From positions 2,311 to 66,310 of the forward strand of contig CAINLW010000009.1 of assembly GCA_903850545.1 (NCBI GenBank): a stretch of DNA of 64,000 nt, in the 5' to 3' direction. Shown in pieces: positions 2,018 through 63,009 of this stretch. Below the pieces are notes generated by a model, which saw nothing but the letters and a program-made list of their open reading frames with translations, made no database searches and was not told the DNA's origin. The position numbers and the translations under genes were made by a program. How positions within the stretch are numbered: the first letter of the stretch is position 1; each line of letters starts with the position of its first letter. Source of the stretch: an uncultured bacterium. GTDB taxonomy: Bacteria > Patescibacteriota > Minisyncoccia > Phycocordibacterales > GWA1-40-21.

Positions 2018-3067
2018 ATGACAGAAACAGCTTTATATAGAAAATATCGTCCGCAAAAATTTAAAGAAATTTTGGGACAAGATCATATAGTAAAAGTACT
2101 AGAATCTTCTATTAAAAATGGAAATATTGCTCACGCATATATTTTTGCAGGTTCACGAGGAACTGGAAAGACCAGTATTGCTAGAATATTAGCAAAAGAA
2201 ATTGGCACAACAGTAAATGACATTTCCGAAATAGATGCAGCTTCTAACACCGGAGTTGATGATATCCGAGCTTTAAATGAATCTGTAAGCACTTTGCCTT
2301 TTGAATCTGTATATAAAGTTTATATTTTAGACGAGGCTCATATGCTTTCAAAATCTGCTTGGAATGCGCTTTTAAAAACAATTGAGGAACCTCCTAAACA
2401 TGTAATTTTTATTCTTGCTACTACTGAAGCAAACAAAATTCCTGAAACTATCATTTCAAGATGTCAGACTTTCTCATTTAGAAAACCAACTCAAAAAATG
2501 CTAAAAGATGTAGTTGTGGCTATTGCAAAAAAGGAAGGTTTTTCCTTGGAAGCCTCCTCAGCGGATCTTATCGCTTTGCTTGGAGATGGGTCTTTTCGTG
2601 ATGCGCAAAGTATTTTGCAAAAAGTAATGAGTGCTTCAAAAGACAAAAAAATTAGTCATGAAGAAGTAGAACTTGTTACTGGTGCACCAAAAACTGAGCT
2701 AGTAAATGATTTTATAAGAGCTATAGACGAAAACAATCTTGAAATAGGACTTGGAGCTATTTCAAAAGCCACCGAAGCAAATATTGATATGCTTTTATAT
2801 TTTAAACTCGTTCTTCATAAGATGCGTTCAATACTTTTGCTTCGAAATCTGAAAAGCTCAGAAGGGAAGTTACAAGATGAAATGACAGATACCGATTTTA
2901 AATTTCTAAAAGGTCTTGCCGATAAAAAACCATCAAACCCGCCTACAGGTCGGGCAGGAATTACTTCTGATACTTTACTTACACTTTTATCTTATTACGA
3001 TATGGTGGCAAAAGCGTATATTCCCGAGTTACCACTTGAGATCGCTCTTACAAAGCTCATAAAATAG
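2018..3067 (+). CDS. dnaX: DNA polymerase III gamma/tau subunit, short form
   Basis: N-terminal YRKYRPQKF..GQDH, Walker A GSRGTGKTS, DEAH-like ILDEAHML, sensor SRCQ. Confidence 0.85.
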   Translation: MTETALYRKYRPQKFKEILGQDHIVKVLESSIKNGNIAHAYIFAGSRGTGKTSIARILAKEIGTTVNDISEIDAASNTGVDDIRALNESVSTLPFESVYKVYILDEAHMLSKSAWNALLKTIEEPPKHVIFILATTEANKIPETIISRCQTFSFRKPTQKMLKDVVVAIAKKEGFSLEASSADLIALLGDGSFRDAQSILQKVMSASKDKKISHEEVELVTGAPKTELVNDFIRAIDENNLEIGLGAISKATEANIDMLLYFKLVLHKMRSILLLRNLKSSEGKLQDEMTDTDFKFLKGLADKKPSNPPTGRAGITSDTLLTLLSYYDMVAKAYIPELPLEIALTKLIK

Positions 3068-3113
3068 TGTAGAAGATCGACAATTTTTATTAATTTATAA
3101 TTAAAATATAATT

Positions 3114-4874
3114 ATGACCAGTCTAGAAAATAATAAATTTGAAAAAGTGTCTTTAAATGACAAGATGGAAGAATCCCCACTGTTTTCAAAAAGATTTTAT
3201 GAAAAAATGCGTTTATTTGCATTAGCTGGTTTATTGCTTATGCCCGGTTATGGAATTGCATCAAAAAACAAAAACGAATCTACTGAAACATCTACTTCAC
3301 AACTGGAAAATAATCCAAACTATAACGATAGTTTAATAGAGCAATTTAATAAAATTAAACTTGAATCTCCACATATACACAATACATTTTTTATAAAAAA
3401 TGAAAAAACTGGTGTAATTGAAACAAACTGGTGGGCATTACTCGCACCATTTCAAGTAGAATTACCTTGGACAAAAGATGGAGTTAAAGATAGTTATAAC
3501 GTATTACATGATTATGCTCGTCTTTTCATATCCGCAGGAGCACTTAACAATAAAGAATATTCAAAAATTTCAGAATTAATGGAGCAAGAAATAAAACAAC
3601 AGTTGGTAGAAGTTTTATACGGTTTAGACATAAGCAAAAAAGCTCATGAAGCCAATGAAGCGCCAAATTTTGATCAATTAAAAATTGAGAGTATCAATAT
3701 AACCGGAACGGCTTCTCCAGAGGGTCCAGCTTATAAAGGACCAGAAACAATTGAAAGTGTAGATCCAGAAAATCTCAAATTGGCACATTCAAGAGGAGTA
3801 AGTGGTTTTGATGAAATAATTAAGTCACTTAAAAAATTAGGAATAAATCCTGATGAAAAGATATTGCAAAAAGCTCTTTATGGTATTAACTTTGAGGAAG
3901 TGCAATTTTCACCAGATGAAATGAATAGAATGGCAGAATTATCCCGTGACTATTTTGGGTCAGATTCTTTGGAAAAGATCTTTAATATGATTGTTGATTA
4001 TAATGATAAAAAAATCTCAGATCCAAATTTAGTTTTGGAACTTGATTCGAGGGTTGCTTCAAAAAGATCTGTAGAAATTGAAATCGAATATTCTGGCAAA
4101 TTGCATCGAAGCTTCTTAGTACCAATACCACTTTTGCTTTTTATATTACCTTTTATATTTGGAGATGGTCGCAAAAAATATATAAGTAAGATTTCAAAAA
4201 ATGGATCATTTTTTAATGAAAATTATGATACTTTGATTAAATCGGGAAGTGGCGCATATGGTGATAGTGAAAGTGCTGGAATAAGTAACATTGGTAAAAT
4301 TGGTGGTCCAGATAAAGTCAGTGAAGTTTCTATTACAAGTAGCGGAAATGTTGAAAAAATAAGTGAAGCAGAAAAAATTGGTTCTGCAAACGCAATAACA
4401 GAAACTGAAAAAATATCTGAAAATTTTCTTAAATATTATTATTCATCCACTATACCTGAAGGAAAAGATAGTGAGCAAATGGAGGAGGCAACATGGATTG
4501 ATGATCTCTATAATTACTTCGACAGCGAGATTGCGATTAAGAGGGGTTTGAGTTATCGAGCTATTACTGATTCTATTTTATATGATAGTAAAATCTTTAA
4601 AAATAGTGATGAGATAGAATTAAAACTTACATTTCTTATTTTAAATAAATGGACCGAGCATGATTTGGCGGCTCGTCGTGAAGCCGGAGTAGATGAAAAT
4701 GTAATAAATGACGGTTTGAATTACACTGAAAATAATGAGCAAATAAAATGGGCTCGCATGCACGCAAAAGCCATTATTGAGATTGTTAAAATGAAAAAAG
4801 AAAATCCAAACAAGGATTATGAGGAATTGCTTGCAATAAAAGTTCAACAACTTCAAAAAAGAAGAACTTTTTAA
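3114..4874 (+). CDS. Hypothetical membrane-anchored protein (N-terminal transmembrane segment, internal hydrophobic segment)
   Basis: 586-aa ORF. Hydrophobic stretch LFALAGLLLMPGYGIA near the N-terminus and LVPIPLLLFILPFIFG internally. No recognisable catalytic motif. Confidence 0.45.
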   Translation: MTSLENNKFEKVSLNDKMEESPLFSKRFYEKMRLFALAGLLLMPGYGIASKNKNESTETSTSQLENNPNYNDSLIEQFNKIKLESPHIHNTFFIKNEKTGVIETNWWALLAPFQVELPWTKDGVKDSYNVLHDYARLFISAGALNNKEYSKISELMEQEIKQQLVEVLYGLDISKKAHEANEAPNFDQLKIESINITGTASPEGPAYKGPETIESVDPENLKLAHSRGVSGFDEIIKSLKKLGINPDEKILQKALYGINFEEVQFSPDEMNRMAELSRDYFGSDSLEKIFNMIVDYNDKKISDPNLVLELDSRVASKRSVEIEIEYSGKLHRSFLVPIPLLLFILPFIFGDGRKKYISKISKNGSFFNENYDTLIKSGSGAYGDSESAGISNIGKIGGPDKVSEVSITSSGNVEKISEAEKIGSANAITETEKISENFLKYYYSSTIPEGKDSEQMEEATWIDDLYNYFDSEIAIKRGLSYRAITDSILYDSKIFKNSDEIELKLTFLILNKWTEHDLAARREAGVDENVINDGLNYTENNEQIKWARMHAKAIIEIVKMKKENPNKDYEELLAIKVQQLQKRRTF

Positions 4875-4984
4875 AAAATAGTGATAAATATTTGCTTGTT
4901 AACTAATAATAATAAGTATTACTGAGGGATTAAAAGTTATCCACAGTATTAATTGTTGACTATAATTAATATTTGAGTATAATT

Positions 4985-5430
4985 TGCGACAGGAAAAAAT
5001 ATTGATCTTTCTGCGCATAGAAAAACGACCCTTTCGGTCAAGGAAATAGCTATGCGCATAATCCGTATCTTGCGGACAGGGCAAGATAGGGTGCTCTTCA
5101 GAAGAACACCGCTACAAAGTGGGCGACTCTTTAAATAGTTGCCACGGATAAACAAAGTGCAGTAGTGCAAAACAAATCAAGCGCCACCCAAAAAGCGAAA
5201 ACTTGCGGGCCAAAGCGTCAGTTTATGCACTCCAGCCTGTTACTTAAAATTGCGACCAATCACCCTGAGAGGACGCAATTTGTGGCACAAAAGAGTGGTC
5301 ACGCCATTCTTTAGTTAGGGGTCCTGATGGTACTCAGCGAGACCTAAAGCTCGCGTCATCTAGCTTGCTCAGGCATGCAAAAAAGGACCCCGCGATTTCG
5401 CGGTCGAGTGGGGTTGGACTAGTAAAGTTC
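4985..5430. other. GC-rich, highly self-complementary intergenic island between convergent genes; candidate structured RNA or foreign remnant
   Basis: Nested helices: ctgcgcatag..ctatgcgca enclosing gacc-ctttc-ggtc; aaattgcg..cgcaattt; gcgag-acctaaag-ctcgc; ggggttgaac..gttcaacccc at 5410-5440. Only short spurious ORFs. Confidence 0.3.
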
Positions 5431-5530
5431 AACCCCCTCTTTAATTTATAAATTATATTTAATCTACACAATAACCACATTAAAGTGGTTTTTTAATTTT
5501 GTATTTAGAATACAATAGACGTCTTAAATA

Positions 5531-6601
5531 TTAAATTTTCCAATTACCTTTTTCCTGAATTACTTTTCCATCAACAATAATTTGTGCTTTTTTCATACTT
5601 TTAACAATATCCCAATGTAGAGAGGAATCATTTCCACCACCGTTTTCTTTGTAGGCGGCACCCAACGCTAAGTGAATTGTACCACCGATTTTTTCATCAA
5701 ATAATAAATTGTTTGTATATTTATTTATTTTTGGGTTACAACCAATACCAAGTTCCCCTACAAATTCTGAATTTTTGTCTAATGCAAGCATTTTTTTCAA
5801 ATAATCAAGATTTTTTGTCGCTTTTGCTTCAATCACTTTTCCATCTTTAAAAACTAATTCTATATCAGAAACTTCTTTTCCATCTCGAACAGAAGGGAAG
5901 TCAAATTTAATATAACCATTTAAACTTTCTCGAACTGGAGCCATAAAAACTTCACCACCTGGCATATTTTCCTCACCTTTATCAGCAACGGCTTTTTCTC
6001 CATGCACCTTCATTTTCAAATCTACACCAACACCCACAAGGTGAACCTCACTATTTTTCTTAAATTTTAGCAAAATTTTATCCATCAATTTACCCAATTT
6101 TTTCCAATCTTGCAAACACGCACCGAAAACAAAATTTTCGTATTCTGTAAGTGACATCTCAGCTTCTTGTGCTAAAGCTTGGCAAGGATATCCAACAGTG
6201 ACTCTGTGCATTAACGGTTTTGAATTACAAATATGTTCTCTAATAGAATGCGTTACTTTTGATCTTGTGGCGATTTTATTTGAATCACAATTTGTAAGTT
6301 CTCTTGTGTTTGTATCTGTATCTATACCGATATATTTTTGGGAATTTTTGACTACAAACTCAAAATCCTCCGGAAATTTTTCTAGCTGGTGTTGTTGCGC
6401 ATGAGTATAATACGTATGAGTAAGCCCGGGTAACGATAATCTTAACACTGGATGTGCACCTGCTTTTATTACTTCTTCATATAAAACTCGTATAAATTCT
6501 TCTGCTTCAGTGCTACCCGAGATAATAACTTTTTCATTGTGTTTAACAAAAACAGAATATTTAACTACCAACTGCGCTAACTTTTTTGTTCTAATATCCA
6601 T
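5531..6601 (-). CDS. M29-family aminopeptidase (AmpS/PepS-like), tentative
   Basis: 356 aa. N-terminal MDIRTKKLAQLVVKYS and overall layout resemble thermophilic aminopeptidase II (M29). Confidence 0.5.
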   Translation of the reverse strand: MDIRTKKLAQLVVKYSVFVKHNEKVIISGSTEAEEFIRVLYEEVIKAGAHPVLRLSLPGLTHTYYTHAQQHQLEKFPEDFEFVVKNSQKYIGIDTDTNTRELTNCDSNKIATRSKVTHSIREHICNSKPLMHRVTVGYPCQALAQEAEMSLTEYENFVFGACLQDWKKLGKLMDKILLKFKKNSEVHLVGVGVDLKMKVHGEKAVADKGEENMPGGEVFMAPVRESLNGYIKFDFPSVRDGKEVSDIELVFKDGKVIEAKATKNLDYLKKMLALDKNSEFVGELGIGCNPKINKYTNNLLFDEKIGGTIHLALGAAYKENGGGNDSSLHWDIVKSMKKAQIIVDGKVIQEKGNWKI

Positions 6602-6617
6602 TGTATTTAAATTAAAA

Positions 6618-6660
6618 ATTAAATATCAAAAATCAAAATTATAGATTAAATATCAAAAAT
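6618..6660. promoter_or_regulatory. Two perfect 16-bp direct repeats (attaaatatcaaaaat) 27 bp apart, in the promoter region of the M29 aminopeptidase gene
   Basis: Copies at 6618-6633 and 6645-6660. Confidence 0.3.
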
Positions 6661-6760
6661 TTCGATTCAAACTAATAAATTTATACATTAAATTTCAAAA
6701 TATATTTAATAACCTTAGTAGTATTACATCTTCAATAATAACAACTACTTCAAATCTTGC

Positions 6761-8284
6761 TTATTTTAGCACAATTATTGTTTCGTCTCTATCAGGCCCA
6801 ACTGAAATAATCCGAGTTTTAACACCAGCCTCTTTTTCAATAAACGAAATAATTTTTTTAAGTTGTTGCGGAAGTTCGTTTACATTTCTTAGTTTACGAA
6901 TAGTTGTTTGCCAACCAGAAAAAGTCTTATATATTGGTCTACAATATTTCAAAACTTCTTTGTCTGGAATTGCAATGTTGATTTTTGTTCCTTTATTTAA
7001 TATAAGTTCACCTACATGATATTTTGGGCCAGTATATTCATAAGCTACACAAATTTTAATTTCTTTACATAAATCCATTACATCAATTTTGGTAAAAATA
7101 ACATCTGGACCGCTAAATTGAACCGAATATCTTAAAAAGGGAAGATCTAGCCAGCCAGTTCGTCTCGGTCGTCCTGTTGTGGCACCGTATTCATAACCTG
7201 CCATTCTAACAGCTACACCAAGTTTAAATTCATCTGTTTGATCAAGTAGTAAATCTCCAAACTTATCTTTCTCCATCTTTTTTGTTATTCCAGACGTTCC
7301 ACACCATTTGGCCGATTTTAAACCACCCATTTCTGTTGGAAAAGCACCTTCACCAACCCTAGTCATGTATGGAGCCTTTATAATGCCAAAAGTCATATCA
7401 ACATCATTTTCATGCAACCCAACGCCTTTAGCTAAGCCAGCGATTGTGCAATCTGAAGCTGTAACAAAAGGATAAGTGCCATGATCAATACTAAGCAGGT
7501 TTCCTTGAGCACCCTCAAGAAGTATTTTCTTTTTACCAAGATTTTTTCTCAAATAAGTATCTGTATCTGTAATATTATTTTTAAATATTTTGCCATATCT
7601 AGTATATTCTTTAACTATTGCATCTATATTAAATATATTTTTATTGTCGTAAAAACGTCCACAACCCAAATGCTCATGTTGAAGAATTTGTTTAATTACT
7701 TTTTTATCATATTGATTAAGTAAAACTATTTTTTCACGAAGATTTCTAATAAGCTTTTCTTTAAAAATTTTAGGATTAAGCAAATCATTAACAGTAAGGC
7801 CTATGCGAGCATAATGGTCTTCGTATACTGGACCAATTCCTCTGCCAGTTGTGCCTATTTTATTCAAACCAGCTTTGCTTTCTTTTACTCGATCTAATAA
7901 TAAGTGTTGAGGTAATACTAAGTGAGCATCTTTAGAAAAGAATATGTTTTTATTACTACACCCCGAGGCTTTTAAAAGCGACATTTCATGTTCTACAACA
8001 GCTGGATCAAAAGCAACTCCGCTACCAATAATATTAATTTTACCTTTTGAATCATATAGAATCCCTGACGGAATAAGATGGAAAATATATTCTTTATCTT
8101 TGAGACGAATGGTGTGTCCAGCGTTTGCTCCACCAGTACCACGTGCAATAATATCTGCCCATGAACCAAAAAAATCTACAAATTTTCCTTTTCCGGTATC
8201 GCCCCATTGATTGCATACAACTGCAATAGTTTTTTTACCTTTTAATAATTCGCTCGTTTTTTTAAAAAGATTTGTTTTTAACAT
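6761..8284 (-). CDS. purA: Adenylosuccinate synthetase
   Basis: QWGDTGKGKFVD P-loop. GGANAGHTI motif. Longer than the usual 430 aa, at 507 aa. Confidence 0.85.
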   Translation of the reverse strand: MLKTNLFKKTSELLKGKKTIAVVCNQWGDTGKGKFVDFFGSWADIIARGTGGANAGHTIRLKDKEYIFHLIPSGILYDSKGKINIIGSGVAFDPAVVEHEMSLLKASGCSNKNIFFSKDAHLVLPQHLLLDRVKESKAGLNKIGTTGRGIGPVYEDHYARIGLTVNDLLNPKIFKEKLIRNLREKIVLLNQYDKKVIKQILQHEHLGCGRFYDNKNIFNIDAIVKEYTRYGKIFKNNITDTDTYLRKNLGKKKILLEGAQGNLLSIDHGTYPFVTASDCTIAGLAKGVGLHENDVDMTFGIIKAPYMTRVGEGAFPTEMGGLKSAKWCGTSGITKKMEKDKFGDLLLDQTDEFKLGVAVRMAGYEYGATTGRPRRTGWLDLPFLRYSVQFSGPDVIFTKIDVMDLCKEIKICVAYEYTGPKYHVGELILNKGTKINIAIPDKEVLKYCRPIYKTFSGWQTTIRKLRNVNELPQQLKKIISFIEKEAGVKTRIISVGPDRDETIIVLK

Positions 8285-8288
8285 CGAT

Positions 8289-8834
8289 TTATTTATTAGT
8301 TGAAATCAAATATTTATGTAATTTTTTTAGTGCAATATTTCTCATCGCATAAGGTTTATGTTCCTGATTTGTCATCTCGGCGTATGTCCTATCACATCCT
8401 TTTGGAATAAAAATTGAAGCCCAACCAAAACTGTTTTTACCTTTTGGATTTTGAGAAACAGTGCCTTCCATAGAACCACTGAAAAATCTCACTTTTTTTC
8501 CATCATAAAATCCGTAACAAACGGTTGCAGTGCAACTACGATCTTTTCCATCAAGTAATCTGCATAAACCTTCGTTCGTTAACTCATGTTCAAACCATTT
8601 AATAAGCGGGCCAGGCAATTTTCCCAGCGAATGGAAAACAAAAGACACATCTTCAACCAAGATAGTTTTTTTAACTATTTTAAAAGCTCTCTCAGCTTTA
8701 TCTTTTACAATTTCTTCAAGATCTAAAGATTGTACCTCGTGTAAATTTAGCGATTGATGATCAATTGGCATTTTTAAGTAACGACACACTTCCTCAGCTT
8801 TTCCTGCATTTCCAGTAATAAATATTATTTTCAT
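8289..8834 (-). CDS. rdgB: Non-canonical purine NTP pyrophosphatase (ITPase, Ham1/RdgB family)
   Basis: MKIIFITGNAGKAEE N-terminal signature. Length 181 aa. Confidence 0.7.
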   Translation of the reverse strand: MKIIFITGNAGKAEEVCRYLKMPIDHQSLNLHEVQSLDLEEIVKDKAERAFKIVKKTILVEDVSFVFHSLGKLPGPLIKWFEHELTNEGLCRLLDGKDRSCTATVCYGFYDGKKVRFFSGSMEGTVSQNPKGKNSFGWASIFIPKGCDRTYAEMTNQEHKPYAMRNIALKKLHKYLISTNK

Positions 8835-8956
8835 AGTGTAAACTTTAACACGATATAGTCATTATTACAAAAAGTTAGGTGATTCCAAGCTATTGAACCT
8901 ATACGGTACCATTGACAAATATTAAATTAATTGTTAATATTATAGATAGTAGTAAA

Positions 8957-9085
8957 TTTAGTATGTTTCAGCGGTTGAGCCCAAAGGACCAAGAGTTACC
9001 TCCGTGCTTTTGGTGCCTCTCCAGACAAACGCTGAAGCATCCGCCTCATTCAGGTTTGGGCAAACTGAATGAGGCACTTTTTTTT
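8957..9085 (+). ncRNA. Small structured element ending in an intrinsic terminator; candidate sRNA
   Basis: Long-range pairing atgtttcagcg..cgctgaagcat. Terminal hairpin gcctcattcag/ctgaatgaggc followed by T8. No credible ORF; the 99-aa listed ORF has no supporting features. Confidence 0.3.
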
Positions 9086-9181
9086 AAAAGTTGTAAATTA
9101 AAAACATATCTATTTAATAATTTTCAATATATAACCTTATATCTCTGTGTCATTCAAAATGTAAAAAAATATTTACAAGTC

Positions 9182-9817
9182 CTAGCACCCGAAAATTTTG
9201 AGACAAAGTAAAATGATTCCAATAATAACCAAAATAATAAGTAAAAAATGAATAAAAGACAGTAGGTGATTTGAATGGTAATCGTTTCTGTTCCAAACAA
9301 TGTTCATATAAATATTATATTTTTTATACAAAGATATCGGAAGTCCAGCATTAATGGCTTTATCGATTGTATCTTGAGTTCCAAAGCTATTATTTATTTG
9401 AAAAGCAAACACTTCATCTGAAATTTTCACCTCTTCTGTGTTACGAAGCAAATATTCTTTATCATCAATGATGGTGTCGTTTTGTATTTGTATAACTGCG
9501 CTTGGATTTACATCAATTATTTTTACTAAAAGTTTCTCAAGGTTATTAATGATTTCATCAGTAATAGGTTTTTTACACCAATTTGTGCGGTAATTAATTA
9601 TATAATTGTTTAAAAAAGCCGGAATGATTACTTTCAATCTTGATGCATCTGGAAAAAGTTTCATTGCTTCATCTATAGCAAAAAAATCCACACCAGTTGT
9701 TCCACCGGTAACAATTCCATCACCATGAGAAAGAACTTCTCGAGTCGCAGTGCGAACATCATTTTCAACTTCTTTGTTAATAGTTCTCCATGATCCTGTA
9801 AACAAAATCCATTTCAT
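9182..9817 (-). CDS. Rossmann-fold protein with a GG..GVD motif (SLOG/DprA-like), tentative
   Basis: ILFTGSW..HGDGIVTGGTTGVDFFAIDEAM is reminiscent of DprA/Smf and SLOG-family nucleotide-binding domains. Confidence 0.3.
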   Translation of the reverse strand: MKWILFTGSWRTINKEVENDVRTATREVLSHGDGIVTGGTTGVDFFAIDEAMKLFPDASRLKVIIPAFLNNYIINYRTNWCKKPITDEIINNLEKLLVKIIDVNPSAVIQIQNDTIIDDKEYLLRNTEEVKISDEVFAFQINNSFGTQDTIDKAINAGLPISLYKKYNIYMNIVWNRNDYHSNHLLSFIHFLLIILVIIGIILLCLKIFGC

Positions 9818-14938: not shown

Positions 14939-15012
14939 TGGGGGATCGTCTAATGGTAGGACGCGTGCCTTTGGCGCATGCAATCGGGGTTCGAGTCCCT
15001 GTCCCCCAGCCA
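14939..15012 (+). tRNA. tRNA-Gln (anticodon TTG), CCA encoded
   Basis: Acceptor TGGGGGA/TCCCCCA. D-arm GTCT-AATGGTA-GGAC. Anticodon stem CGTGC/GCATG with loop CTTTGGC. T-arm CGGGG-TTCGAGT-CCCTG. Discriminator G + CCA. Confidence 0.75.
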
Positions 15013-25570: not shown

Positions 25571-26206
25571 ATGAAAATTCTCAGAAATATTTTGGGTATA
25601 GGTATCGGTCTTGTTTCTATTGGTTTGTTATTTAGTAAACCAATTTCAGGTATCGTAGGTCTTATTTTTGCAATAAGCTTTTTACCAAAAACGTGGTCTT
25701 ATCTTTCTAAGAAATATAATTTAAATATTCCTAAGCTCTATAAAATATTAATCGTTGTTGTATTACTTTTTGTTTTCTTTAGTCTTTTACCTCAATCAGC
25801 ACCTCAAGTCCAAAATGTTATTAACAATGAAGCTAGTTCAACTACAAATATAATTGATAAAGAAAAAACACAAAGTCTAAATGGTGGTATTAAGTTTAGT
25901 CTTGATAAGGATTACGGATTCGGTGTCATCACTGTTACAAACAAAGATAGCTTTGATTGGAAAGATTGTGTCTTTTCAGTTCCTCTTGCAAAAACTAATC
26001 CTCTTACAATATTAAAAGGAGATTATATGCCTATAACAGCATCTGATTTCTTTAATGATCCTGAGTTTAATAATGGTGGAAAACAAATGACTATGGATGA
26101 TGGCACTTTCAGAAATATAGGAGGTGCTATTAATGTCCAGTGCAGTAATGGTCAAAGCTCAATTGATAATGTTGCTAAAAATTTTAGTAATATAACTGTA
26201 AAATAA
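25571..26206 (+). CDS. Secreted/membrane-anchored hypothetical protein
   Basis: N-terminal hydrophobic segments. Thr/Asn-rich. Confidence 0.4.
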   Translation: MKILRNILGIGIGLVSIGLLFSKPISGIVGLIFAISFLPKTWSYLSKKYNLNIPKLYKILIVVVLLFVFFSLLPQSAPQVQNVINNEASSTTNIIDKEKTQSLNGGIKFSLDKDYGFGVITVTNKDSFDWKDCVFSVPLAKTNPLTILKGDYMPITASDFFNDPEFNNGGKQMTMDDGTFRNIGGAINVQCSNGQSSIDNVAKNFSNITVK

Positions 26207-35338: not shown

Positions 35339-36313
35339 ATGAACGATAATAAGATACACTTCAGTAACGTGCCGTTTATGGCATATGTCGAGAGCATGGG
35401 AGACGAATTGATAGAATGTACTCCAGTGGTATACGGCGATGGACTCAACTATGGCATCAGTGTGTTATTTCCCAACATGGAAAGTATCACATGGGGTCTG
35501 GTGACACCCAGAAACCTCATCACTGCATGGCGTGGGACAGAAATACTGCGTCATATCCACACCATCGAGAACGGAACACTCTGCGCAGCCTACTACACGG
35601 GTATACGCAGTCCTCACGAGAGTGATATGAAGTCGTACGTGGAACCGATCATCAAAAAAATTGGTCGGGATGTGTACGACACAATCATGTCAATGACCGT
35701 ACCCGAACAAATAATAAGGGCAATACTCGACAATCAGAATGGTGATTCCAAACCTGATCTTTACCCGATAACTGACGAAGTACGGGCGGGAACCATCGAG
35801 TGGCGACAAGAGTTCGTCGAATTCGGGATCAAGCACCCTGATGATGTCGATAACGAAGAGAGGTTGCAGAAAGAGACAATCGCTAAATTCGAACGCCTAC
35901 TGGCTTCCTATGCAAGATCGAGAAGTATACCGAGAAACTGTATGGGTATGAATTACGTCGAGAGTGCTCTATTGACTCTCGTCGACAAGAAAGCCAACGA
36001 GGAACATTCGGATAACGTACTTATCGCTCTCTCAGGTGTCGTCGGCGAACTAAGTATAACGAACTTCGCAGCATTTATATTACCGTTTGGCATTAGTAAT
36101 CAGGCGGAATATGATGCACGAATTAACAAAACCAAGGAGGAAGCACTTGAGTATTCGGCGTCGTGGCTGGCTTCAATTTCTAAACCACCGTGGTTTAGTT
36201 TTCTTAGAAAGAAAGAGACTGTCTCATTCACCTCAGAAAATGCAACGAAGTTGCTCAGAGAATTACTTGAAAAGTATTTTCCCAGAAGGAAAAAGTTAGT
36301 TACTTTTGTGTAG
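35339..36313 (+). CDS. Hypothetical protein encoded by a compositionally atypical (higher-GC) gene
   Basis: 324 aa. Strong Shine-Dalgarno sequence. Codon usage is visibly richer in G/C-ending codons than neighbouring genes. Confidence 0.5.
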   Translation: MNDNKIHFSNVPFMAYVESMGDELIECTPVVYGDGLNYGISVLFPNMESITWGLVTPRNLITAWRGTEILRHIHTIENGTLCAAYYTGIRSPHESDMKSYVEPIIKKIGRDVYDTIMSMTVPEQIIRAILDNQNGDSKPDLYPITDEVRAGTIEWRQEFVEFGIKHPDDVDNEERLQKETIAKFERLLASYARSRSIPRNCMGMNYVESALLTLVDKKANEEHSDNVLIALSGVVGELSITNFAAFILPFGISNQAEYDARINKTKEEALEYSASWLASISKPPWFSFLRKKETVSFTSENATKLLRELLEKYFPRRKKLVTFV

Positions 36314-42711: not shown

Positions 42712-42809
42712 TAATTGATAAAATTAAAATAAATGTTCTAGTATGAAATATAACGTATGAAATGATGTAGATCAACAAAATCTGCAATTATTATTAAATA
42801 CTTCAATAC

Positions 42810-42950
42810 AGAGCACACGAGGTATTAGCTATTATTATTTCTGTCTTTGCGAGCAAAGCGAAGCAATCCAGAATTACATACAATACAAACCTGGATTGCT
42901 TCGTGCCTCGCAAAGACAATACATAGAAGGTGGACCGATGCAGAGCATCG
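42810..42950. repeat. Dispersed hairpin repeat, copy B
   Basis: agagcacacgaggtatt..gtctttgcgagcaaagcgaagcaatccag (42843-42871) / ctggattgcttcgtgcctcgcaaagac (42891-42917)..accgatgcagagcatcg. Same orientation as copy A. The loop sequence differs. Confidence 0.7.
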
Positions 42951-42962
42951 GGGAATATCTAA

Positions 42963-44752: not shown

Positions 44753-44901
44753 ATTTATTTATCAAATATTAATTTAATGTAAATTGTACTTCGAGAATTG
44801 GCTTTTCAATTTATTTTATGTTATAAACTGACGCAGGAATAAAAAGTGGTTTTGTGTGTTCTTTGGTAGTAAAACGCAGTTTATTTTAGAAGGAGGAGAA
44901 A

Positions 44902-45384
44902 ATGAAAAATAAAAGTACCGCGATTAACGTTGATGATATAGATGTTAAAATTCTGCTGGCAGTTTTTGAGCGCGAGTGCATTCTTAACAGATTGCCGCTC
45001 CGTTTACCAGCAAATATTCCCGCCGAAGAAAAAACTTCTTTCTTCAAGCGGTTGCGGACAGAGCAGGATATCTTTTTACGTGATTTTTATAATAAACACA
45101 TCAGTGACAAAAAAGAATCGCCTGACAAAAAGCTGGAGGCTTACGTTATCGGCAAAAAAATTAAGGGGTCGAAAACAGGAAAGAACGAATGGACTCCTGC
45201 AAGCATTGACGCCCTCGCAAGAAAGAAGGGAAAGCTTCCCAAAGGATCAACCGATGGTATGACCAAGGCCGAGCTGAAGGAGTTCAAAAAGCTTCGGTGG
45301 AATTATAAATACGGAAAACGCCCCGTTACAAAAAAAGGAAAAGGGCGCGGTCAGTCCTCAGGGGCTGAATTGGAGGGCGATTGA
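44902..45384 (+). CDS. Hypothetical basic protein encoded by a higher-GC gene
   Basis: GAAGGAGGAG Shine-Dalgarno sequence. Lys/Gly-rich C-terminal tail. Confidence 0.45.
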   Translation: MKNKSTAINVDDIDVKILLAVFERECILNRLPLRLPANIPAEEKTSFFKRLRTEQDIFLRDFYNKHISDKKESPDKKLEAYVIGKKIKGSKTGKNEWTPASIDALARKKGKLPKGSTDGMTKAELKEFKKLRWNYKYGKRPVTKKGKGRGQSSGAELEGD

Positions 45385-45582
45385 AAAAAAAACAACTGAC
45401 TTTGTAACAACGGGAGGAAAACTTACATGGACAGATGTAGAGTCCAAAATTGCTGCTACTAAAGCTGCTAAGGAGGCAGAAATAAGGTTAAAAGAAGAAA
45501 AGATAGCAGAATTAAGAAAAAGAACAGGACTCTCGGTGCATGAAGCACCAGAAAGCAGGTAAGTAGACAGTAGTAAATATCA

Positions 45583-45620
45583 GCCCCGCCCGGAGTAATC
45601 TGGGCGGGGCTTTCAACTTT
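45583..45620 (+). terminator. GC-rich hairpin terminator
   Basis: gccccgccc..gggcggggc followed by TTTC. Confidence 0.45.
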
Positions 45621-45657
45621 ATATAATTAGTTTTGAACTCTGTCTTTGAAATTAAAG

Positions 45658-45695
45658 ACGACCGAGCTCCCCTGGGAGCTCGGTCGTATTTTTGT
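45658..45695. terminator. Bidirectional terminator (perfect 14-bp stem) between convergent genes
   Basis: acgaccgagctccc-ct-gggagctcggtcgt. T-run downstream on the plus strand and A-rich upstream. Confidence 0.6.
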
Positions 45696-45704
45696 GCTGA
45701 GAGT

Positions 45705-46157
45705 TCAGCGCGGAATCGACACTACTGTGATACCAGCAAAAGTATATTTCTTCGGCATCACTACAATTTTCCATCCTTCGCGAAGGCCGATGCCGCCACC
45801 ATGTGAGAACTTGACTTTGTTTTCTGGTGATAAGGTTGCTTCAACATCGGCCCAGAAAAGGTCGTCGACGGCATTAGCGAAGTCACATTCGACCATCGTT
45901 CGTCCCAAATTTTGGCACTTGGGACAGGTGAGCGAGTCGCCTGTGGTCGAGCAGTCAACCATCTCGTTGTGTTCACCAGCCATCTTGTTGTACGAGTCTA
46001 TGGTGTTGTTTTTGAAGGCGTAGAACTTTTGAAGTTCAATGTCGGTTATCTGTCCTACTATCACCTCATTCGACCCCACCTTATCATTCGGACCTTTGAT
46101 ATCCTCAGGTTTTATAGCCGAAATTCCGTCACATAACCGCCTCAGTATCTTTGTCAT
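45705..46157 (-). CDS. Hypothetical protein with a CxxC motif, encoded by a higher-GC gene
   Basis: AAGGAGAG Shine-Dalgarno sequence 5 nt before ATG(46157). CPKC. Confidence 0.45.
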   Translation of the reverse strand: MTKILRRLCDGISAIKPEDIKGPNDKVGSNEVIVGQITDIELQKFYAFKNNTIDSYNKMAGEHNEMVDCSTTGDSLTCPKCQNLGRTMVECDFANAVDDLFWADVEATLSPENKVKFSHGGGIGLREGWKIVVMPKKYTFAGITVVSIPR

Positions 46158-46430
46158 TTATTCTCTCCTTGTGTACATTTTACAGGTTTTCAAAACCTGT
46201 TTCGTATCGGATGTTAATATAAAAAATGTTGTTTGTCAATCTACTTTGGTATGTCTAATATTCAAACAGAAAGTATATAATTAACGTAAATGATTATCAT
46301 GTTGACAATAATCATCATATAGACTATAATTAACTCAATTAAGAAGTAAGTTGATTTTTGTAAGGATTAGTCGTCTTTCGTTTCAAGTGAGGTCTTAAGG
46401 ATTTATTAAGTGTGCGTAATTTATAATTGA

Positions 46431-61843: not shown

Positions 61844-62017
61844 GGATTTGTACCAAAACCTCACAAAAAGGCCCAAATTAGGCCAAATATTGCGTATTAG
61901 AGGCATAATTTACTCAAAATTCATCAATTAAAGTGGTTTGACCAAAGGCCAAACCGCTTTTCTGTTTTTTAAAAAAATTAAACATTTACTTACCTTGAAT
62001 CACGAATCTCCCTTTTC

Positions 62018-62192
62018 TGTCATCCTCGCTTCGGCAGGGTTGAAGTTGGGATGGGACCCAACTTCAAGGACGGACTGAGCGGAGGCGAAGGAGTCGGGGT
62101 CGCGAGATTTTTCAGCTGAAAAATACTTGTGATCCAGATTAATTGAATTAAAATGCGATACAACCTGGATCCCCGCATCCGCGAGGATGACA
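62018..62192. other. GC-rich structured element with 12-bp terminal inverted repeats and nested palindromes; candidate miniature mobile element or structured RNA
   Basis: Terminal inverted repeats tgtcatcctcgc (62018-62029) and gcgaggatgaca (62181-62192). Internal hairpin ttgaagttggg..cccaacttcaa. Perfect palindrome atttttcag|ctgaaaaat. gatccagatt..aacctggatc. Confidence 0.4.
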
Positions 62193-62217
62193 ATTCGGAG
62201 AGTTTCGTAATTCACAG

Positions 62218-63009
62218 TTACTTAACTATCAAATCCAAAATATCTTTTACGTTTTGTAATGGTAACGCACCATTTATAACAATCTTTTTGTTTGAATCTG
62301 AAACTGAAACAAAAACATTACCGTCGCTATCAATCAAACTATTTTTAGAAATATATTCATCTATTTGGTTTTTTACTTCTGAGGTTATAGATGTTTTTAA
62401 TAAAATAACATTATAAGGAGTAGATCGTGCTCCAGCATTTACACCATCTTGAAAATTTTCTGCAACAAGATTCGCATATTTACCAGAATTTAAACATTCA
62501 TTAAATTTTGTAACATCAATACCAACATTTTTTGCAAATTCAGGAAGTTTACTAGCATCAAGTCCATTGTTGGAAGGAGTATTGGCATAAATCATATCCA
62601 ACATTTTCCAAAAAGTAGTATTTCCACCTAGTTCATTCGCACATTCCGTAGATTCAGCTTCTTTTCTTGATTTTGAATGTAATTCATCAATGGGAAAATG
62701 TCTATATACCCAAGCAACTTTTCCTTCTTTTCCGTATGTGTTCATAATATTTTGCATTGTGTTTTGAAATATTCTACAAAAAGGACACTCGGTGTCAGAA
62801 AATTCTACAATAACTGCCTCAGCATTCGGGTTACCTAAAATATGATCAGTACTTGATACTGGATTAATATTAATATCTGATTGAAAAGAAGAATTATTAT
62901 TTACCAAAGATGGCTTATTATTTTTAGAATAATAAATTCCACCAGCAACCATAAGGCCGATAAAGATAATAAAAGCTGGAATATAATAACTGTTTTTTGA
63001 TTCCTCCAT
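62218..63009 (-). CDS. DsbA-like thiol:disulfide oxidoreductase (thioredoxin fold), membrane-anchored
   Basis: N-terminal transmembrane segment. CPFC active site in SDTECPFCRIF. Confidence 0.65.
   Translation of the reverse strand: MEESKNSYYIPAFIIFIGLMVAGGIYYSKNNKPSLVNNNSSFQSDININPVSSTDHILGNPNAEAVIVEFSDTECPFCRIFQNTMQNIMNTYGKEGKVAWVYRHFPIDELHSKSRKEAESTECANELGGNTTFWKMLDMIYANTPSNNGLDASKLPEFAKNVGIDVTKFNECLNSGKYANLVAENFQDGVNAGARSTPYNVILLKTSITSEVKNQIDEYISKNSLIDSDGNVFVSVSDSNKKIVINGALPLQNVKDILDLIVK

Follow-up and report, generated by a model that had tools for sequence, protein, structure and literature searches.

An island of GC-rich, strongly folded sequence lies between two convergent genes in the 64,000-nucleotide (nt) stretch of contig CAINLW010000009.1 analysed here (the window), which comes from an uncultured bacterium. 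The relatives of its M29 peptidase and of its dnaX place the host, a metagenome-assembled genome, in Candidatus Paceibacterota (Parcubacteria; candidate phyla radiation, CPR). Positions 4988-5445 of the window may be a stand-alone gene on the + strand for a highly structured noncoding RNA (ncRNA) of about 450 nt, and I put the chances of this reading at about even. That the island is transcribed, from which strand, between which ends and with what mode of action is inferred. The gene upstream encodes a protein of 586 amino acids (aa) without a Pfam match, whose translation contains hydrophobic segments, and the gene downstream (5531-6601, minus strand) encodes an M29 peptidase (PF02073, E=9.5e-67). 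Both neighbours are as described in an earlier note on this DNA, which had named them a membrane protein and an M29 aminopeptidase. The same note had placed about 450 nt between their stop codons. The stop codons are in fact at 4874 and 5531 and enclose a spacer of 656 nt, of which the GC-rich core (4988-5445) makes up 458 nt. The description of the segment as GC-rich holds well, since the GC content of the core is 0.474, as compared with 0.212 on its left (4875-4987), 0.188 on its right (5446-5530), and 0.329 in the whole window.

The core folds far better than its composition predicts. Its minimum free energy (MFE) on the + strand is -157.6 kcal/mol, while dinucleotide shuffles gave -124.5 +/- 5.8 kcal/mol (z=-5.7, with 0 of 100 as low); in a second run, the shuffles gave -122.8 +/- 5.75 kcal/mol, 0 of 200 were as low, and z was about -6. 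The island has seven uninterrupted helices of at least 7 base pairs (bp), where the shuffles have 3.6 +/- 1.4 and only 5 of 200 reach seven. The fraction of paired bases is 0.63. The GC content is 0.60 at the paired positions and 0.26 at the unpaired ones, and A occupies 0.52 of the latter; neither of these two values for unpaired positions was reached by any of 200 dinucleotide shuffles. Since the AT skew is +0.26 to +0.32 over 5000-5300, the A-rich unpaired positions are specific to the + strand. Such positions are typical of structured RNAs. The segregation of G and C into stems together with A-rich unpaired positions is the pattern of a structured RNA and is unexpected for random DNA of higher GC content. 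In AT-rich genomes, long GC-rich intergenic regions are enriched for structured ncRNAs (PMC6429828, PMC8632094).

A sigma-70-like promoter lies just ahead of the core and two terminator-like hairpins lie at and beyond its end, all on the + strand. A promoter and Rho-independent terminators that bracket a noncoding segment on the same strand are the mark of an independent small RNA (sRNA) gene, and here they are present as consensus matches. The support from the promoter comes from its placement at the 5′ edge of the core and not from the quality of the match: it ends about 5 nt ahead of the core, and the probability of finding such a match by chance in a 40-nt slot on either strand is estimated at about 0.003.

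Predicted anatomy of the RNA

The features of the island are as follows, where p is the mean pair probability of a helix from the partition function.

4956-4983, + strand: sigma-70-like promoter, TTGACT-16-TATAAT, matching 11 of 12 consensus positions; predicted transcription start at about 4989-4992
4988-5445, + strand: proposed structured RNA body of 458 nt, delimited by composition and fold
5012-5058, + strand: hairpin H1 with a 9-bp stem, UGCGCAUAG/CUAUGCGCA (5012-5020/5050-5058), p=0.96
5027-5039, + strand: small hairpin within H1, GACC-CUUUC-GGUC, p=0.94
5061-5149, + strand: closed multi-helix junction with the closing stem AUCCGU/ACGGAU, which is less certain (p=0.51)
5067-5087 (7 bp), 5090-5110 (4+4 bp), and 5122-5143 (7 bp), + strand: arms of this junction, p=0.88-0.98
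5156-5238, + strand: middle domain, an irregular long hairpin (AGUGCA/UGCACU among its stems) with A-rich internal loops, the least certain part (p=0.33-0.87)
5239-5286, + strand: hairpin with an 8-bp stem, AAAUUGCG/CGCAAUUU (5247-5254/5274-5281), p=0.91
5290-5312, + strand: 10-bp hairpin, AAAGAGUGGU-CAC-GCCAUUCUUU, p=0.97
5318-5391, + strand: branched 3′ domain closed by GGGGUCCU/AGGACCCC, p=0.77-0.99, with the inner stems GAUGG/UCAUC and GCGAG/CUCGC (5337-5341/5350-5354, p=0.99) and a UGC-UCAG-GCA hairpin
5380-5403, minus strand: terminator-like site, CCGCGAAAUCGCGG and then GGUCCUUUUUU; coming from the M29 stop codon, this is the first hairpin that has a T-run (5403->5390)
5406-5447, + strand: intrinsic-terminator-like hairpin of 11 bp with 6 G-C pairs (5410-5420/5426-5436), followed by CUCUUUAAUU, p=1.0
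5473-5500, + strand: second terminator-like hairpin, AACCAC-AUUAAA-GUGGUU (5473-5490), followed by UUUUUAAUUUU, ahead of the M29 stop codon at 5531

All inverted repeats singled out in the earlier note are present in the MFE fold, with pair probabilities of 0.91-1.0. One of them, given there as a perfect ggggttgaac repeat at the 3′ end, reads ggggttggac...gttcaacccc and contains one G.U pair. The only long-range helix in the predicted fold has p=0.16, and the fold is otherwise a chain of local domains. The terminator-like hairpins cover only the last 60-100 nt or so (5390-5500) and leave about 400 nt of structure unaccounted for. Thus, the remark that the segment is too long and ornate to be a bidirectional terminator alone was to the point.

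On this reading, RNA polymerase would initiate at the 4956-4983 promoter and stop at the hairpin at 5410-5436, and the hairpin at 5473-5490 could serve as a back-up terminator before the M29 stop codon. No + strand terminator was found between 4874, where the 586-aa gene stops, and 5410. Transcripts that read through from the operon of dnaX and the 586-aa gene would therefore share the 5410-5436 terminator. The RNA would then resemble an sRNA embedded in a 3′ untranslated region (UTR), with an internal promoter of its own and a terminator shared with the upstream operon. On the minus strand, two hairpins lie closer to the M29 stop codon and lack a T-run, and the G.U pair of the 5410-5436 stem becomes an A.C mismatch; the site at 5403->5390 is likely to be the end of the convergent M29 mRNA. 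The last 60 nt or so of the RNA would thus be antisense to the 3′ UTR of the M29 mRNA and should pair with it.

In the predicted RNA, about 63% of the bases would be held in local hairpins and two closed multi-helix junctions, with A-rich linkers between them. A folded scaffold or a protein-binding RNA acting in trans seems likelier than an antisense regulator that pairs through a seed, because single-stranded stretches are few in the RNA, no target emerged from the translation-initiation regions of the window, and GGA motifs occur at the expected frequency. A sponge for a CsrA-type protein was considered and rejected on the last count, the island having 7 GGA triplets where about 7.5 are expected.

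Relatives of the island and variability of the locus

Is the island found elsewhere? The exact M29 protein is encoded on 11 public contigs, and the six of these that span the island (L001-L006, from ENA metagenomes) are all 100% identical to the window there. Thus, the public copies show no population variation across the island. Apart from these identical copies, searches of about 1.3 Mb of relatives' loci with blastn or nhmmer detected no homologue. Covariance models built from the single sequence, one for the 5′ domain (R1) and one for the 3′ domain (R2), were run over 0.99 Mb of relatives' loci and recovered only the window itself.

The loci of the flanking genes gave the same result. Of 61 M29 loci in GTDB genomes, the four nearest (79-85% identity) lack both a GC-rich island next to the M29 gene and a match to the island. 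The 586-aa protein has only eight homologues, the closest of which is 45% identical if the near-identical copy P0001 is set aside; the three loci of these homologues that were examined have no large spacer beside the gene and no match. For dnaX, close relatives number in the hundreds, and neither blastn nor nhmmer found a match in 14 dnaX loci (72-93% identity) or in more distant ones. The ERZ1426829 contig P0013, which has a dnaX of 93% identity followed by an unexplained 600-nt gap between convergent genes, lies outside the compared set. No match was found by blastn in phage and plasmid records, nor were paralogues or repeats of the island found within the window. The stop-free frames were also searched as pseudo-proteins, with six degenerate patterns per scan; two scans of IMG/VR and one of JGI metagenome contigs gave only chance pattern matches. 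The earlier note had looked to conservation in related genomes for confirmation, and the data searched hold none beyond the identical copies. Judging from these sequence comparisons, the island appears to be species-specific in the accessible data, which is not proven, as loci rather than whole sibling genomes were scanned.

The locus itself is variable. Downstream of dnaX, different genes were found in every relative whose dnaX is 72-93% identical (14 loci read). Contig L001 (ERZ27313568), from the same species, is identical to window 3126-9601. Its positions 6477-7071, which correspond to window 2500-3126, carry a GC-rich ORF resembling DNA methyltransferases in place of dnaX, upstream of the 586-aa gene, which has a slightly different start and encodes 584 aa in L001. 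Either strains differ here by a rearrangement at a hot spot, or the assembly is chimeric.

Several points weigh against a stand-alone RNA gene. Since no homologue was found, no helix has support from covariation, and the island has no positional counterpart in relatives, unlike another GC-rich island at 1600-1950 of the window. The variability of the locus among relatives and among assemblies of the same species fits a recent acquisition without an established function. Promoter matches of at least 11 of 12 positions occur five times on both strands of the window, as compared with 5.4 times in shuffles, and the U-tract of the 5410-5436 terminator is interrupted (CUCUUUAAUU). The two strands are nearly equal in folding energy (-157.6 vs -156.1 kcal/mol) and similar in the number of G.U pairs. 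A search for targets among the 57 translation-initiation regions of the window did no better than one with shuffled RNA, the best duplex having -41.2 kcal/mol and the best of the shuffles -38.5 kcal/mol on average. Finally, no partner gene such as a reverse transcriptase, Cas, transposase, or integrase gene was found nearby; the neighbours are housekeeping genes or genes of no assigned function.

The alternative that survives best, though I consider it rather improbable, is that the island is not a separate gene but a long structured 3′ UTR or a buffer between convergent transcripts. The transcripts of dnaX and the 586-aa gene (+ strand) and of the M29 gene (minus strand) would stop at the hairpins, and the additional structure would merely stabilise 3′ ends or prevent collision. 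It speaks for this alternative that read-through from the upstream operon must enter the island, given that no + strand terminator precedes 5410, and that terminator-like sites occur for both directions (5403->5390 and 5040->5026 on the minus strand, 5410-5436 and 5473-5490 on the + strand). The occurrence of the promoter match at shuffle frequency also agrees with it. However, termination needs about 30-40 nt per strand and not 458 nt with two closed multi-helix junctions. Elsewhere in the window, the gaps between convergent or tail-to-tail genes are either short or rich in AT (for example, 42712-42962 with GC 0.33), and the A-rich unpaired positions of the + strand and the promoter exactly at the 5′ edge favour a dedicated transcript.

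A second alternative, which seems somewhat less probable again and takes up the inserted foreign fragment of the earlier note, treats the island as inert. DNA of higher GC content, either horizontally acquired or decayed, would have been left behind at a recombination hot spot downstream of dnaX, and the promoter and terminator matches would be incidental. The replacement of the genes after dnaX in the relatives, the methyltransferase-like ORF where dnaX should stand in L001, and the lack of any detected homologue of the island are all consistent with this, and so is the neighbouring M29 gene, whose next-closest relatives are in DPANN archaea. On the other hand, no protein-coding ancestry was detected in six frames and no match was found in the phage and plasmid collections or IMG/VR. 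Nor is a random piece of higher-GC DNA expected to fold 6 standard deviations below its own dinucleotide shuffles or to have unpaired positions with 26% GC and 52% A.

Known RNA families, coding potential, and comparison with known systems

The earlier note had proposed Rfam/Infernal as a check and had considered an unrecognised RNase P RNA or tmRNA gene. I used the 4227 models of Rfam 15, which include RNaseP_bact_a/b, tmRNA variants, SRP, 6S, OLE, GOLLD, ROOL, HEARO, raiA, and Intron_gpI. At gathering thresholds, only a tRNA-Gln and a LOOT RNA were found in the whole window, both outside the island. A scan of 4000-6500 at E<=1 was negative, and one of 4900-5520 (621 nt) at E<=10 gave just four chance matches, each of them on the minus strand and located in the AT-rich 3′ flank and the terminator. 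Thus, no relevant family was matched, and SRP, 6S, OLE, GOLLD, ROOL, HEARO, and raiA RNAs were rejected even at E<=10. ARAGORN found no tmRNA in the whole window, and its sole tRNA is the tRNA-Gln at 14939.

A further possibility, though a very improbable one, is a housekeeping RNA or an intron-containing RNA that has diverged beyond the reach of standard models: an RNase P RNA of reduced form, an atypical tmRNA, or a tRNA interrupted by a highly divergent group I intron. A length of about 450 nt is within the size range of RNase P RNA, tmRNA, and intron-containing tRNAs. Moreover, some introns of Patescibacteria escape RF00028, and those in tRNA-Thr evade both RF00028 and ARAGORN (PMC13011429), which limits what the lack of an RF00028 match at E<=10 can say about a group I core. 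Against this, the models of RNase P, tmRNA, SRP, 6S, and group I introns are all unmatched on the 621 nt. For tmRNA, there is in addition no T-loop and no acceptor pairing at the ends, and no frame has a typical ...AA* tag. The first and last 40 nt or so contain no sequence for a D-arm, an anticodon arm, or a T-arm, as an intron-split tRNA would require. For RNase P RNA, a local alignment to Escherichia coli rnpB scored 23, which is the level of shuffles (23.2 +/- 3.3), and the fold has no credible long-range P1 or P4. Two stretches, AAGGAAAUAGCUAUGC (at about 5040) and ACAAAAGAGUGGUCAC (5287), superficially resemble CR-I and CR-V of the Bacillus subtilis RNase P RNA. This likeness was rejected: a P4 helix cannot be drawn, since H1 holds the CR-I-like stretch in its 9-bp stem and 150 nt separate the CR-V-like stretch from the 3′ end. 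The suggestion of an RNase P RNA or tmRNA gene was therefore abandoned.

No better standing can be given to small proteins, such as a 28-aa Arg-rich ORF from the ATG at 5052, or to a type I toxin-antitoxin pair. An AAGGA does lie 7 nt ahead of this ATG, and several frames stay open for 49-63 codons, 63 codons being the longest in the island. However, the Shine-Dalgarno sequence and the start codon are sequestered in the 9-bp H1 stem. A six-frame chimeric query of the island against 5.8 billion predicted proteins returned nothing at E<=10, so that no frame has a homologue there. No gene is called here in any of the six public contigs, and the conceptual peptides are not hydrophobic, unlike type I toxins. 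By its sequence, the island is not recognisable as a decayed gene or a small-protein gene.

How does the putative RNA compare with known large RNAs? As with OLE, GOLLD, ROOL, and raiA RNAs, the island is in a long intergenic region, has a GC content far above the genome average, combines many helices with A-rich linkers, and lacks coding potential. Transcription independent of the flanking genes, another property of these RNAs, is proposed for it. Such a GC-rich intergenic signature is the basis of the GC-IGR discovery pipelines (PMC6429828, PMC8632094, PMC11109978). Unlike these RNAs, however, the island has no Rfam match, no conservation beyond one species, no covariation, and no characteristic gene neighbourhood. 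Its length of about 450 nt is also below that of OLE, GOLLD, and ROOL, and the island is not a member of any of these classes. Thus, of the earlier proposal of a large structured ncRNA of the OLE/GOLLD/ROOL-like class, the stand-alone structured ncRNA stands as the best reading of fold and composition, while the membership in a known class has to be given up.

The island also resembles the DapZ- or MicL-type sRNAs in that it directly follows an operon without a terminator of its own, has its own promoter-like site, and shares the terminator. These enterobacterial 3′-UTR sRNAs are 80-300 nt in length, depend on Hfq, and have a short conserved seed. In contrast, the RNA of the island would be about 450 nt long and almost fully folded, and no seed or target was found. 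In CPR bacteria, to which the host belongs, no system of this type is known.

The island is best regarded as a candidate RNA gene that belongs to a known general kind but is not yet classified, and not as an established new class. A tentative idea, more doubtful than the RNA gene itself, is that it founds a new class of large structured ncRNAs in Paceibacterota, with one species to date. If this were true, the island would be among several structured orphan RNAs that evolve fast, as at least four unassigned islands and a LOOT RNA are present in 64 kb, and minimal symbiotic bacteria would rely on a lineage-specific RNA repertoire outside the current family databases. CPR bacteria (Patescibacteria) have tiny genomes whose regulation is mostly obscure, and almost nothing has so far been learned about their ncRNAs beyond rRNA and the introns of tRNAs. 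A 450-nt RNA kept in a reduced genome would be costly and therefore probably functional. The presence of several islands in 64 kb hints at many uncatalogued structured RNAs in the lineage. As a singleton, the island has its value as a well-delimited target and not as a demonstrated new RNA class.

Other islands and neighbouring genes

Three other islands (1600-1950, 8920-9085, and 61990-62210) and the LOOT RNA share the GC-rich, strongly folded intergenic design of 4988-5445, although no alignable similarity was found between the latter and the other islands of the window. The first island (1600-1950, + strand) occupies the spacer between the Dus gene and dnaX. Its GC-rich sequence of about 330 nt comes with a promoter (TTGACA-16-TAAGAT) and a strong terminator, and the island has no Rfam match. 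Unlike 4988-5445, it has a positionally conserved spacer, which is GC-rich at the same position in all of the dnaX relatives (L076, L077, L079, L080, and L159). A core of about 100 nt (AAGGAGG..CACCCGA..CTAACGCC..AGGGTATTG..CGGGCTAG) aligns with L077, L079, and L080 and includes a double change from GCCC/GGGU to ACCU/AGGU. The versions in the relatives have several perfect Shine-Dalgarno-like AAGGAGGTGAT motifs. It is possible that this island is an RNA that is conserved but not yet described, or else a leader carrying mini-ORFs. An RNase P RNA was considered here too and rejected: the similarity is not above chance, and the CR-I-like stretch is a local hairpin that is not conserved in the relatives.

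The third island (8920-9085, + strand) looks like an sRNA gene. It combines a promoter (TTGACA..TAATAT) with a long hairpin formed by about 120 GC-rich nt and a terminator in which T8 comes after GCCTCATTCAG...CTGAATGAGGC; no Rfam family matched it at gathering thresholds. The recurrence of the promoter-fold-terminator design at 1600-1950 and 8920-9085 supports the idea that the GC-rich islands of this lineage are RNA genes. The fourth island (61990-62210, minus strand) reaches 59% GC just downstream of a minus-strand gene (62218-63009). It folds into a closed multi-branch structure with a 13-bp closing stem (z=-6.8, 0 of 200 shuffles), and minus-strand terminators follow at 61955->61935 and 61884->61870. 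The LOOT RNA (RF03000; 25385-25506, + strand) scored 85.6 bits, as against a gathering threshold of 46.4 bits (E=9.4e-15), and lies upstream of a gene at 25571-26206. An 8-mer, AAAGGACC, is common to the first island, 4988-5445, and the third island (at 1660, 5380, and 8983), where the rough expectation for an 8-mer shared by all three is 0.004-0.02. It could be a contact for a protein or an RNA, or a matter of chance.

Two observations concern genes near the island at 4988-5445. Past a few CPR genomes (79-85% identity), the nearest relatives of the M29 peptidase are found in dozens of DPANN archaea (Woesearchaeota, Pacearchaeota, and Nanoarchaeota; 55-69%). This distribution of sequences suggests that the gene may have been transferred between domains among ultra-small symbionts. 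In contig L005, all 67 mismatches to the window fall inside 533 nt of the adenylosuccinate synthetase gene purA (window 7663-8195), which gives an identity of about 87% there, the rest being 100% identical. The pattern suggests that a related strain recombined with this one or was co-assembled with it.

Elsewhere in the window, the coding regions at 44900-46200 and 35339-36313 have a GC content of 0.45-0.48 in a genome of 33% GC and no Pfam match, and were probably acquired recently. Strong terminator hairpins lie at 45585-45615 and 45660-45690.

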